Of a stretch of DNA of 64,000 bases, positions 20,483 through 40,912 are shown in pieces. The notes under the pieces are model-generated. The model had not been told where the DNA came from, did no database searches, and saw only the letters and a list, made by a program, of their open reading frames with translations. The first letter of the stretch is position 1. Each line of letters opens with the position of its first letter. The position numbers and the translations under genes were made by a program. The stretch is from a virus: positions 1 through 64,000 of IMG/VR virus record IMGVR_UViG_3300021139_001840; one strand, 5' to 3'.

Positions 20483-20653
20483 ATGACTCGCTACGAGTGG
20501 ATACAAGCTCTTGTTGAGGATCCAGAGCATCCAGGTGAATTATTACTGGACCTCGGCAATGAGTTGTGTGAATACCTTGATTGGAAAGAAGGTGACACAC
20601 TGGATTGGATTGATAATAAGGACGGTACATGGACGATACGAAAGAAGACTTAA
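20483..20653 (+). CDS. AbrB/SpoVT-like small protein (56 aa; not in ORF track)
   Basis: GELLLDLGNELCEYLDWKEGDTLDWIDNKDGTWTI swapped-hairpin pattern. Confidence 0.65.
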   Translation: MTRYEWIQALVEDPEHPGELLLDLGNELCEYLDWKEGDTLDWIDNKDGTWTIRKKT

Positions 20654-21219
20654 ATTTAGATATAAAAGAACTGCTAGACAAACTTAGGACTGTTGACGTG
20701 AACAAAAGTGCTTCTTCATCAGCAGATGTATCCACAAATGATGCCTGTTATGATAGCAGTCCATACATTTATAATAATGCGTCTGATACTATTACCTTAA
20801 GTGGGAGTGAGTTAACTAATGGTGGGTCAACAATACTAAATCCCGGCGGGCTTACAGGATCATACGGGCAAGTTTATACCGCAAGCTCTGGTCTTGGTGG
20901 TACTTACAGTAATACCTCGCCCTGGGCAACCAGCACAGGCACTGCAAGTCCTTGGGTCACTAATACCACTCTAAAAGGCGGACAACTAGAACTCGAAGGC
21001 AAAGATGCCGATATTATTATAGATGGTAAAAGTTTGCTTGATACACTGGCAGCCTTAGAAGAACGATTAAACCTATTGGTTCCCAATCCTGAAATGGAAA
21101 AGGAATGGGACCAACTTAAACGGTTAGGTGACCGGTATCGTAAGTTAGAAAAAAAACTTAAAGAACAAAGTGACATGTGGAACAAACTAAAATCCATGCC
21201 ACCTCCAGAAATATATTAG
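20629..21219 (+). CDS. Hypothetical protein (S/T/G-rich middle, coiled-coil C-terminus)
   Basis: 196-aa ORF. Confidence 0.7.
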   Translation: MDDTKEDLNLDIKELLDKLRTVDVNKSASSSADVSTNDACYDSSPYIYNNASDTITLSGSELTNGGSTILNPGGLTGSYGQVYTASSGLGGTYSNTSPWATSTGTASPWVTNTTLKGGQLELEGKDADIIIDGKSLLDTLAALEERLNLLVPNPEMEKEWDQLKRLGDRYRKLEKKLKEQSDMWNKLKSMPPPEIY

Positions 21220-21289
21220 TAGTTAATAGCAAAAAGACATCGAAATGATTGCTTTTTTACAAGTTCTGTAATAAAATTAGTAAGTATTA

Positions 21290-21570
21290 ATAGTAGCGAA
21301 CACCGGACGGGCTTGATGCCGGAATATAAATGTAAGTCACGCCCAGTTAATAAGGTTTGTCCAAGTCTTATTAACTGTTCGAAAGAGGACTTCGGAACTC
21401 CTCTTCGTTGACAACTTAGAATTGTTTACACTCACTACAATTTATCGGACACAAGTGTAAACCAGGAAGAAGTATGCCAAAGAAGGCCGAGGTCTCGTAT
21501 CTACACTTCTCCTTTTTAATTTGTCAATGTGCTCATCCTGAGCATCCGCCGAAACGGTCCGGTTGAACCG
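21290..21570 (+). ncRNA. Candidate large structured RNA or 5' leader (~280 nt)
   Basis: Non-coding, at least six stems with two possible loop-loop pairings; preceded by TTGCTT-17-TAAAAT and TAAGTA. Confidence 0.6.
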
Positions 21571-21583
21571 AAGGAGAACGACA

Positions 21584-22267
21584 ATGAAGAATATCTTATT
21601 ATCGTTATTAATAGCATTAGGCAGTACCGCAGTAGTAGCACAAGAATACCAAGTAGCAGATTTAAAAGCAGAAGTAACATTTAAAGATCACGTGATTAAC
21701 CAAGCCACAAGTTTTGTGGAATCAACAGTTAATATGATCGCAACACCATTCTTATCCGACAAGGATGTAGAATGTTTAGCTCGTAATATATTTTATGAAG
21801 CTGGCGGCGAACCTATAGAAGGCAAAGCAGCAGTTGGAATAGTTACACTTAACCGCACTCAAGATGACAGATATCCACAAACCGTATGCGGTGTAGTTAA
21901 ACAACGTACTGTATTATCAGTACCACATCGAGTAAAAGAAGTTAAAACTATTAAAACTGATTGGCTAAGCCCTCCAAAACAAGTTGTTGAAGTTAAAACA
22001 ACTTGGGTACAAAAAACCATTTATCAATTTAGTTGGGTTGGACAACGCAATATCAAAATTCGTGAAGACGATCCACGCTGGATAGAATCCCGAGCAGTAG
22101 CCGAAGAGTTAGCTCGTGGTGGATATGAAACGTGGCAAGAAAAATATGAAAATGCAAAAAATTTCCACGCGGTTTATGTACATCCGGGCTGGAAATTAAA
22201 GCGTATTGGCCGGGTAGGTAACCATATCTTCTACGAAGGCACAACTCCTATTCAGCGGGGCGGTTGA
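21584..22267 (+). CDS. SleB-like cell-wall hydrolase (Hydrolase_2) with signal peptide
   Basis: CLARNIFYEAGGE...V.LNR...YQFSW...GNHIFY; AAGGAG SD. Confidence 0.9.
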   Translation: MKNILLSLLIALGSTAVVAQEYQVADLKAEVTFKDHVINQATSFVESTVNMIATPFLSDKDVECLARNIFYEAGGEPIEGKAAVGIVTLNRTQDDRYPQTVCGVVKQRTVLSVPHRVKEVKTIKTDWLSPPKQVVEVKTTWVQKTIYQFSWVGQRNIKIREDDPRWIESRAVAEELARGGYETWQEKYENAKNFHAVYVHPGWKLKRIGRVGNHIFYEGTTPIQRGG

Positions 22268-22292: not shown

Positions 22293-22324
22293 AGTAGTAT
22301 GAATAGCAAATTTGGATTGATTTG

Positions 22325-22720
22325 ATGACGATGCATTTGGAAGGGCCGTGGTTAAGCACTACAGGCAAACAAAAGACCAAACGTAAGTGGACAAGTTCTG
22401 AAGCTAAGAAGTTAGCTGAAAAACGACAAGCTGAGTGGGATCGCAAGTTAGTTGAGTTTGATAAACTTGCTCCCAAATTCAGCACTGGGCCTTACAATGC
22501 TCCCCGAAAAACTATGGCAGATTTCATGCCCAAAACTCCCCCGGGTCGTGAAACTCCTCGAGTTCAATCACAGGACACAGGATGGGTGGCTTGTGTAAAA
22601 GTTAAGGATAACGAATATACTGGTGATGCTGTAGTCGGAATAGCGCAAATGGCAAAATCTAATGCAGTCCCTGTATTTGACTCTGACCATATTGTAGAGA
22701 TCGCTAGGATGCGGCGATAA
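22325..22720 (+). CDS. Hypothetical phage protein
   Basis: MTMHLEGPWL...KSNAVPVF...IARMRR. Confidence 0.75.
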   Translation: MTMHLEGPWLSTTGKQKTKRKWTSSEAKKLAEKRQAEWDRKLVEFDKLAPKFSTGPYNAPRKTMADFMPKTPPGRETPRVQSQDTGWVACVKVKDNEYTGDAVVGIAQMAKSNAVPVFDSDHIVEIARMRR

Positions 22721-22763
22721 TATTTACACAGGTAATAAGATGATAGGGATAAATAAAGTTACT

Positions 22764-23654
22764 ATGAGTAAACCATTTAAACCTACCACACTTTATATCA
22801 AGACCCATAATGTTACGGGACTTAAATATTTTGGCAAAACAACAGGAAACCCATTTGAATACCGCGGCTCCGGGATCTATTGGACGGCACACCTTAAAAA
22901 ACATGGCAATGATATTACTACAGAAATTCTAGGTTATTATACTGATAAAGACGAATGCATACAAGCCGCTAATTTGTTCTCTACTGAAAATAATATTGTT
23001 AAGGCCGTGAACGAAAATAATAAAAAGATATGGGCTAATCAAATTATCGAAAACGGCATCGATGGAGGAGCAACTTGGTTCGGCCCGCGCCCAAGAGAAA
23101 TGGTGGAAAGAATCGCCGCGAAACAACGAGGAGTACCAAAATCATTACCTCCTGAAGTAGCTAAAGCCGCCGCAGAAAAGGGATTGGCTACACGAGCAAA
23201 AAATGGAACTCTTCGAAAAAAAGGTGAGTGGAAATTCCCTGAAGCAAGTAAGCAAAAGTTAAGAGACGCTAATTTAGGCAAAAAACAATCCAAAGAAACT
23301 ATTGAAAAGCGCCGAGCTAACTTAATAGGAAAAAAACGTCCCGAAGTGGCAGCAAAGTTACGTGGCAGAACACATACACTAGAAGCTAGAGCTAATATGA
23401 AAGCGGCCCAACAAAATAAAGGGCCGTTAACTAAAGAAACCAAGCAAAAAATAAAAGCGGCACGAGCAAAACAGCAGAATGTTAAATCGTGGGGCGAACA
23501 AAATCAAGGCAAAGTAATAGTTATCGATAAAGAAGGAATAATGAGTCGAATACCAAAAGAACAGTATTATGCTCAAACGGGTCCAAAAAATGATTGGGAA
23601 TGGTTAAGTCATAAATCAGCCGATGCTAACGCTCGTAAGCTAAGTAAAATATAG
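22764..23654 (+). mobile_element. Free-standing GIY-YIG homing endonuclease with NUMOD3-like repeats
   Basis: LYIKTHNVTGLKYFGKT...YRGSG; repeats GKKQSKETIEKRR and GRTHTLEARANM; TAAATA promoter at 22750. Confidence 0.85.
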
Positions 23655-23665
23655 GGAGAATAACG

Positions 23666-23884
23666 ATTTCAAAAGACAATATTATTAAAATGGATGGTGT
23701 AATCACCGAGGTGCTACGCAACACTAACTACAGAGTTAAACTAGACAATATGGAAACTCCTATACTGGCTACATTATCCGGTAAAATGCGTATGAATAAT
23801 ATTAAAGTATTAGAAGGCGACGTTGTAGAATTAGAGCTCAGCCCATATGATTTAACTAGAGGCAGAATTTCTCGCCGTAGATAA
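23666..23884 (+). CDS. infA: Translation initiation factor IF-1, probable ATT start
   Basis: SGKMRMNNIKVLEGDVVELELSPYDLTRGRI; GGGAG SD 7 nt before in-frame ATT gives 72 aa. Confidence 0.92.
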   Translation: MSKDNIIKMDGVITEVLRNTNYRVKLDNMETPILATLSGKMRMNNIKVLEGDVVELELSPYDLTRGRISRRR

Positions 23885-40272: not shown

Positions 40273-40299
40273 TAAATAGTAGATAATACTATCTACTAT
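40273..40299 (+). promoter_or_regulatory. TAAATA promoter overlapping a hairpin that occludes the endolysin start codon
   Basis: ATAGTAGATA-ATAC-TATCTACTAT(G). Confidence 0.7.
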
Positions 40300-40912
40300 G
40301 CCGATTACAGAACAACAATTACAGCAGTTTTTACCCAATAATTCCTATATTGCAGAGTGGTGTAACACTTTGAATACGTATTTTCCAACATATGAAATTG
40401 ATAATACTTACAGAATAGCACAATTTTTAGCTCAAACTTATGTTGAATCAGAAGCATATACAGCACTAATAGAAAATTTGAATTATAGTGCTCAAAGTTT
40501 GATGCGGGAATGGCCCAATTATTTTCCTACTATTCAAATAGCCAATGAATATGCACATCATCCAGAACAGATTGCTAATCGTGCCTACGCTAATAGACTA
40601 GGAAATGGCGATGAAGCATCTGGAGATGGATGGCGTTATATAGGACGTGGGTTAATTCAAATTACTGGTAAATACAATTATAATTTATTTGCGCAAAACA
40701 CTGATATGGATATTACACAAGTGCCAGCGTACTTACTTACATTTGATGGGGCAGTAGAAGTAGCATGTTGGGTTTGGTCGACAAACAACTTAAATCAATA
40801 TTCAGATACTCAAAATACTAAGGAAGTAACTTATCTTATTAATGGTGGGTATACAGATTTACAACAACGCGAAGCTGCTTACAGCAACGCATTAACTATA
40901 TTGGAGCAGTAA
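40298..40912 (+). CDS. GH19-family endolysin
   Basis: AQFLAQ...ES, ENLNYS, GDGWRYIGRGLIQITGKYNY, INGG. Confidence 0.9.
   Translation: MPITEQQLQQFLPNNSYIAEWCNTLNTYFPTYEIDNTYRIAQFLAQTYVESEAYTALIENLNYSAQSLMREWPNYFPTIQIANEYAHHPEQIANRAYANRLGNGDEASGDGWRYIGRGLIQITGKYNYNLFAQNTDMDITQVPAYLLTFDGAVEVACWVWSTNNLNQYSDTQNTKEVTYLINGGYTDLQQREAAYSNALTILEQ

Follow-up and report, generated by a model that had tools for sequence, protein, structure and literature searches.

The 365-nt gap between an open reading frame at 20629-21219 and a cell-wall hydrolase gene at 21584-22267 raises the question of whether phage DNA upstream of a lytic enzyme can encode a structured RNA, and what such an RNA would do. The window, meaning the whole 64,000-nt stretch of DNA that was analyzed, is part of a 96.8-kb phage fragment (CheckV 28%) with T4-type DNA polymerase and clamp-loader genes aboard. 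A preliminary description had listed a series of stems, all of which fall inside this gap, and had interpreted them as a novel noncoding RNA or a complex leader. Each listed stem is present in the sequence at the coordinates it was given, and nearly all of them show compensatory changes among relatives. The inventory was sound for the elements it contained, but it overlooked a second pseudoknot, PK2, and a complementarity between the loops of P3 and P6. From 5' to 3', the window architecture consists of a 5' box, the pseudoknot PK1, the hairpins Px and P3, a three-way junction of P4, P5 and P6, the hairpin P7, and PK2, with the Px loop kissing the P5 loop. All of these features are placed on the + strand.

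Known RNA classes do not account for the region. The preliminary description had found no resemblance to tRNA, tmRNA, RNase P or an intron, and had proposed an Rfam search and a collection of homologs as checks. Rfam 15 (4227 models) returned no match at the gathering score for the whole window, no match at E<=10 for region 21100-21700, and no match at E<=1 for the leaders of 13 relatives. ARAGORN detected no tRNA or tmRNA anywhere in the window, in line with that assessment. BLASTN of the leader region against 50,697 phage records also gave no match.

Homologs were recovered through the hydrolase and through the RNA itself. A protein search with the hydrolase yielded one IMG/VR relative, whose upstream gap aligns with that of the window in blocks, the hairpins between them being altered. 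A pattern built on the P3 hairpin matched 30 viral contigs. A two-anchor pattern matched 33 viral contigs together with metagenome matches which, among those listed, came mainly from lake samples; after 28 chance matches were discarded, at least 126 copies were left. About 25 additional, divergent members came from two further patterns that rely on neither the P3 loop nor the CCGAGG motif. Together, the pattern scans yielded at least about 150 copies, carried by contigs of uncultured phages from lakes for the most part, and the structure is kept in them with compensatory changes. Five phage records were searched whole with a covariance model of the 3' part, including the window's own fragment and three 100%-complete genomes of 320-344 kb, and each contained exactly one copy.

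A scan of 185,579 species-representative genomes gave no host copy and returned only one 2.4-kb contig and two chance matches. A typical copy of the leader, scoring 85 bits, sits on L197 (CAITCX010000170.1, 2370 nt) in a Dehalococcoidia MAG bin, and mis-binning of a phage contig is the probable explanation. On the genome scans done, the RNA is a phage element. Judged by sequence comparison, it represents an uncatalogued family of pseudoknotted RNAs of about 200-300 nt, present once per genome in a clade of giant freshwater phages. The gene that follows the leader is of the SleB/Hydrolase_2 type in every locus examined, divergent loci included, and the RNA was never seen apart from such a gene in these loci. 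All copies examined adjoin the Shine-Dalgarno (SD) sequence of that gene, which supports the initial interpretation of a novel RNA or complex leader preceding a wall hydrolase.

Taken by itself, the window RNA departs only mildly from expectation in folding energy (z -2.8, + strand; z -3.6, - strand), and the case for structure therefore depends on comparison with relatives. In alignment A6, which holds 17 diverse members with the window included, 76% of cells are paired overall, against 36-47% when the partners are slid. Alignment A3, comprising 87 full-length copies, contains 20 pairs with compensatory change, against 1-6 with slid partners. The covarying parts of A3 are an optional 5' domain (a closing helix plus a hairpin), both PK1 stems, P3, the base of P5, and P7. 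Alignment A5 (100 model-aligned copies, 81 distinct) covers the region nearest the gene; there, P7 and PK2 are 95.8% paired, against 21-44% with slid partners, and 11 of the 14 pairs show compensatory change. The 5' domains are modular and are gained or lost among relatives, and the part proximal to the SD is always kept.

The same alignments bear on a coding explanation. An upstream open reading frame running through the leader might be translated, either into a small protein or irrespective of its sequence, and its stop near the hydrolase start (a UUGA overlap) would then couple translation and unfold the structure. One frame is indeed open for 100-120 codons from MVKTYQNLELL... in about 50 of 87 relatives (~58%), and in about 25 of those ~50 it ends at a TGA overlapping the TTG start. 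Against this stand 30 distinct sporadic stop sites in that frame, compared with 38 and 38 in the other two, and column entropies of 0.121, 0.121 and 0.160 at codon positions 1, 2 and 3, which reveal no codon periodicity. The ATG is unconserved (ATA in the window, ACG in others) and has no SD before it, and stem changes preserve pairing rather than amino acids. The window itself lacks such a frame, with stops flanking the anchor at 12 nt upstream and 30 nt downstream. Translation of the leader was accordingly rejected as the main explanation on the strength of the stop sites, the missing periodicity, the unconserved ATG and peptide, and the absence of a window frame; ribosome transit stays a minor alternative, one that we consider highly improbable.

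Transcription would begin close to the first conserved element. A sigma-70-like promoter, TTGCTT-17 nt-TAAAAT, lies at 21249-21277, immediately upstream of the RNA. It scores 8/12 and is therefore missing from the consensus scan list. Two relatives (L059 and L125) carry TTGCTT-17-TATAAT at the same position, and most relatives have the consensus TTGACW-17-TATAAT about 75 nt upstream of the box. In the window's subgroup and some others, the -10 element directly precedes the box. The preliminary description had placed early-type and late-type promoter motifs before the RNA. The sigma-70-like element is weak in the window and of consensus quality in most relatives. The sole T4-late-like motif, TATAAATG at 21325-21332, falls inside the A-rich loop of PK1; it is confined to the subgroup and absent from typical members. 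Between the upstream gene and the box there is also a conserved element, UUAAUGGCAAAAA..UAUCAAAAA.., which reads GUUAAUAGCAAAAAGACAUCGAAAUGAUUGCUUUUUU in the window (21225-21262) and there resembles a weak terminator that overlaps the -35 element.

The 5' box, AGUAAGUAUU (consensus ACUAAGUAUUUUAG), occupies 21279-21288 and is the first conserved element of the RNA; its UAAGUAU is invariant in A3. Since the window version has no optional 5' domain, its RNA begins at the box, directly after the weak promoter. The box was also considered as a general promoter motif and dismissed, as it is not enriched in the window (24 near-matches vs 26 expected).

The structured 5' end, where the RNA opens with a conserved A/U-rich box, could serve chiefly to protect or process the transcript; as a 5' stabilizer or an RNase III/E site, it would govern the half-life of the mRNA and not its translation. 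Promoters at variable distances would give one mature 5' end if cleavage took place at the box. A simple 5' hairpin would suffice for such a role, however, and the two covarying pseudoknots, the conserved junction nucleotides and the strict abutment of PK2 and the SD would be left unexplained. We regard a role limited to transcript stability as quite unlikely.

PK1 is an H-type pseudoknot at 21303-21344. Its first stem, S1, pairs CCGG (21303-21306) with CCGG (21319-21322), followed by an A-rich loop 3 at 21323-21332. S1 is paired in 98.5-99.6% of cases, the lower figure coming with two compensatory positions from the 17 members of A6. Its variants include CGG/CCG, GGG/CCC and CAG/CUG, as well as CUCGG/CCGAG, CUUGCA/UGCAAG and UUGG/CCAA; the last three occur in divergent members, where the A-rich loop always comes next. 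The second stem first proposed, GGGCUUGA (21309-21316) with UCACGCCC (21337-21344), is present with 7 of 8 pairs, but its register is ambiguous, and relatives favor CUUG (21312-21315) with UAAG (21333-21336). Two other pairings involving this region were discarded. CCGGAC (21304-21309) with GUCCGG (21558-21563) is unconserved among relatives, and a conserved UCCG proposed to pair with the ACGGA of PK1 does not covary where ACGGA varies (L100, L150 and L142).

The hairpin Px (21344-21377; 11-12 bp, loop UUUGUCCAAG) is an addition of the window version and is found in the window's subgroup only. Relatives have a hairpin of other sequence in its position, with the loop UUGUCC kept. Within the Px loop, UGUCC (21358-21362) forms the 5' half of a kissing contact, Kx, whose complement is GGACA (21447-21451) in the loop of P5. 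This loop-loop contact, already noticed in the preliminary description, is 97.5% paired across 17 sequences. Its variable flanking pair is U-A in 8 of them, U.G in 7 and C-G in 1 (L172, CGUCC/GGACG). A kiss between the loop of a D1 hairpin and the P5 loop was entertained for typical members and dropped, as the D1 loop is unconserved.

P3 (21384-21404) is a hairpin with stem AGAGGA/UCCUCU (strands 21384-21389 and 21399-21404) and loop CUUCGGAAC. It is 100% paired, with three compensatory pairs (AGAGAC/GUCUCU, AAAGGA/UCCUUU). UCGG in its loop is complementary to CCGA in the loop of P6. A contact between the two loops is possible on sequence grounds: the core UCGG/CCGA is almost invariant, also in independently found members, and its flanks vary without a clean pattern.

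The three-way junction is closed by P4, in which UUGACAA (21408-21414) faces UUGUCAA (21521-21527). The long-range pairing first reported here is paired in 84-91% of relatives, but it shows zero compensatory and a few disruptive changes, which leaves P4 conserved in sequence and unproven as a helix. P5 (21424-21462) pairs GUUUACACU with AGUGUAAAC (strands 21424-21432 and 21454-21462) and presents the 3' half of Kx in its loop; it is 97.8% paired in A6, with compensatory change in 8 of 9 pairs. P6 (21464-21513) is a composite arm. Its outer stem, P6a, joins AGGA(A)GAAGU to ACUUCUCCU and corresponds to the AGGAAGAAGU/ACUUCUCCU stem (21464-21473/21505-21513) identified previously, which covaries in relatives. 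The inner stem, AAGG/UCU, surrounds CCGAGG at 21487-21492, and GGCC(C)GAGGUCU is near-invariant. Individual folds and inspection reveal joint changes in P6a (CAGU/ACUG, GAGU/GCUC, AGAGU/ACUCU and AGAGU/AUUCU). The low count of P6 in A6 (43%) arises because MAFFT misaligns this arm.

The most consistent part of the family lies next to the gene. P7 (21529-21544) pairs UGCUCA with UGAGCA (21530-21535/21539-21544) around a UCC loop. Across the 81 distinct copies it is 96.8% paired, with compensatory change in 4 of 5 pairs. A UCC pyrimidine motif complementary to the SD follows at 21545-21547; it is more than 90% conserved within a linker of variable length. PK2, an H-type pseudoknot, spans 21548-21570, with S1 formed by GCCG (21548-21551) and CGGU (21560-21563), and S2 by CGGU (21555-21558) and ACCG (21567-21570). 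S1 is paired in 81 of 81 distinct copies, although it was deliberately excluded from the covariance model. Five variants of it occur, namely CUG/CAG, GUG/CAC, CCG/CGG (the window form), CGG/CCG and, in the divergent L179 group, CGU/ACG. S2 is 91.6% paired, with all five of its pairs compensatory. The many G.U pairs, as at the first pair of S1 in 79 of 81 copies, identify the + strand as the RNA strand. The SD itself, AGGAG at 21572-21576, begins 1 nt after PK2 and is aligned in all copies; the distance from the end of PK2 to the SD is 1-4 nt in every copy. No terminator was found between the RNA and the SD. Together, these comparisons establish the fold (PK1, the Px-P5 kissing loop, P3, P5, P6, P7 and PK2), its conservation, and its fixed position relative to the SD.

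With somewhat better than even confidence, we read 21279-21583 as a 5' leader on the mRNA for the SleB-like hydrolase, acting in cis on translation initiation. The leader probably gates hydrolase translation. It would be transcribed on the + strand from the sigma-70-type promoter. PK2 and a pairing of UCC/CUCC with GGAG of the SD would be mutually exclusive, an argument from geometry: in the coaxial stack of an H-type pseudoknot, the 5' end of stem 1 is at the far end from the 3' end of stem 2, which is 1-4 nt from the SD. With PK2 folded, the ribosome binding site would be open and the gene ON. With stem 1 of PK2 unfolded, the anti-SD would close the ribosome binding site and turn the gene OFF. 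The large upstream domain would set the balance between the two states, the input being a ligand, a protein or folding kinetics.

Several features of the relatives relate to this proposal. The pyrimidine motif reads CUCC in half of them, and 32 of 41 CUCC copies have a weak TTG start. For many relatives, the minimum free energy structure from RNAfold has CUCC paired to GGAG, enclosing the S2 hairpin. In RNAfold ensembles of 87 relatives, computed without pseudoknots, the median unpaired probability of the SD is 0.28, and it is below 0.3 in 52% of them. In the window, the anti-SD amounts to just 3 bp (UCC:GGA), and the same type of prediction leaves the SD mostly open (P unpaired 0.74); according to this model, the switch effect may be weaker there. 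As the SD is fixed, covariation is uninformative on its pairing with UCC.

Synteny is kept on both sides of the RNA, so position alone is no proof of a tie to the gene that follows. The gene before the RNA is syntenic as well, the C-terminus of its product reading ...LKAMPPP in relatives, and TBLASTN with this 196-aa protein against 50,697 phage records gave no match and no T5-like homolog. Such conservation would also suit a stable, stand-alone noncoding RNA, acting in trans or within a ribonucleoprotein, that lies between syntenic genes and either contacts the SD incidentally or is cut from the mRNA. The size of the RNA and its ornate fold, with two pseudoknots, a kissing loop and a three-way junction, are typical of RNAs that function by themselves, and the two promoter distances from the 5' box would allow that box to be a processing site. 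Yet PK2 sits 1-4 nt from the SD in all copies with neither terminator nor spacer, the SD-proximal part is retained while the 5' domains vary, and no locus examined has the RNA away from a SleB-type gene. A stand-alone RNA is therefore an unlikely reading in our judgment, and a cis-acting leader remains the preferred one.

A more specific version of the leader model can be put forward tentatively, and we hold it doubtful as it stands. The RNA would be a new riboswitch class restricted to giant freshwater phages, in which an aptamer of about 200 nt flips the PK2/anti-SD platform and so times an exported peptidoglycan hydrolase. PK1, P3 and the three-way junction with its kissing loops would make up the aptamer, and the sensed input would be a host metabolite, a second messenger or a cell-wall precursor.

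Comparison with known systems places the cis-acting leader among several partial analogs. The preQ1-I/II, SAM-II and SAM-V riboswitches and the S15 rpsO operator each have an H-type pseudoknot at the ribosome binding site. PK2 is likewise a covariation-supported H-type pseudoknot located directly at the SD (S1 100% paired, S2 compensatory throughout), and control through 30S access is proposed here as well; a further likeness is the A-rich loop crossing a stem, found here in PK1. The preQ1, SAM-II and SAM-V aptamers are 34-80 nt long and hold the SD within the knot, whereas in the phage RNA PK2 S2 ends 1-4 nt before the SD, at least 200 nt of further conserved structure stands upstream, the conserved RNA measures 200-300 nt, and Rfam gives no match. 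By analogy, these riboswitches and operators are the nearest functional counterparts.

In terms of biology, the closest analog is the T4 gene e (lysozyme) mRNA, in which one simple hairpin sequesters the ribosome binding site in early transcripts and an internal late promoter is present. Both cases combine a phage wall-degrading enzyme with mRNA structure, which here may likewise restrain translation; RNAfold predictions, made without pseudoknots, pair the SD in about half of the relatives and leave it mostly open in the window. The present fold, in contrast, is pseudoknotted, extends over about 300 nt and lacks a conserved internal late promoter. GOLLD and ROOL are large, ornate phage RNAs that form stand-alone genes, usually near tRNAs; the RNA described here differs from them in having no Rfam match, in adjoining an SD, and in a window without tRNAs.

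By gene context, the nearest analogs are bacterial. The c-di-AMP riboswitch (ydaO-yuaA, RF00379) and the orphan lysM-Actino, lysM-Prevotella, lysM-TM7 and M23 motifs occur upstream of cell-wall hydrolase genes in bacteria (PMC5737381; PMC9960051). They share with the phage RNA a large structured 5' leader before a peptidoglycan hydrolase gene, and the lysM and M23 motifs share its orphan status. The RF00379 model matched neither the window nor the leaders of relatives, even at E<=10 for 21100-21700. The c-di-AMP riboswitch is pseudo-twofold symmetric with two ligand sites, whereas the present fold (PK1, P3, junction, P7 and PK2) is asymmetric. The lysM and M23 motifs are bacterial, and in the collections searched this RNA occurs on phage contigs only. 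The RNA is a member of none of these groups, be it the pseudoknot riboswitches at ribosome binding sites, the c-di-AMP riboswitch, the lysM/M23 motifs or the T4 gene e type. The glutamine (glnA) riboswitch of the OM43 phage Melnitz illustrates that large virulent aquatic myophages can carry ligand-sensing RNAs (PMC9004378). Phage-borne riboswitches of that sort are copies of bacterial classes, while no bacterial counterpart of this RNA appeared in the collections searched.

Should the RNA prove to be a regulator, it would rank among the largest and most intricate viral cis-acting RNAs known, and it would be the first RNA class devoted to gating a phage peptidoglycan hydrolase. One copy per genome, at least about 150 naturally occurring variants and five forms of a PK2 stem found in nature provide a compact, testable system. 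With it one could ask how wall degradation is timed or dosed in giant phages, and whether phages evolve their own sensors. Should its role be no more than passive tuning of translation, the RNA still constitutes a new, well-supported family fit for Rfam, one that would improve the annotation of apparently empty gaps in jumbo-phage genomes.

The gene behind the leader encodes a SleB-like cell-wall hydrolase of 227 aa with a signal peptide and an ATG start (21584-22267, +; Pfam PF07486 Hydrolase_2, 4e-16; PHROG endolysin families). Two types of hydrolase follow the leader among relatives. The first, to which the window belongs, has about 220 aa and a signal peptide. The second has about 186 aa, is anchored in the membrane by its N-terminus and usually starts with TTG; a membrane protein of 104 aa comes after it. 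Both types occur in tandem behind one leader, with the membrane protein, here of 108 aa, next in line, at L017:5520-7096 and L008:4877-6474. In the membrane-anchored type, the TTG start lies within a conserved hairpin (L009:3093-3158, L012:3199-3300), either UUGAAG/CUUCAA or, at a different offset, AUUGA/UCAAU, and this hairpin may be a second layer of translational masking. A T5-like phage with a SleB-type endolysin has an upstream gap of just 64 nt; with this short gap and the missing T5-like homolog of the upstream protein, a link to a T5-type module of a protein plus an RNA of about 357 nt was dropped.

Downstream of the hydrolase, the window encodes a basic 132-aa protein, MHLEGPWLSTTGK..., at 22322-22720 (phrog_27048), which has no Pfam match. 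Almost every relative encodes it after its one or more hydrolase genes, and it may be a partner of the leader. A gene for a 304-aa homing-endonuclease-like protein (22740-23654; phrog_314, 3.8e-10) lies between the 132-aa gene and a gene for IF1. Relatives have IF1 directly after the 132-aa gene, which suggests that the homing-endonuclease-like gene is a mobile insertion. Positions 23666-23884 of the window, when translated from the ATT at 23666, encode a full 72-aa IF1 (Pfam PF01176, 9.9e-21); relatives have the same 72-aa IF1 with an ATG start. A second, unrelated endolysin is encoded at 40298-40912 of the window (phrog_181, 4.4e-64), and the SleB-like enzyme is thus not the sole wall hydrolase of this phage.
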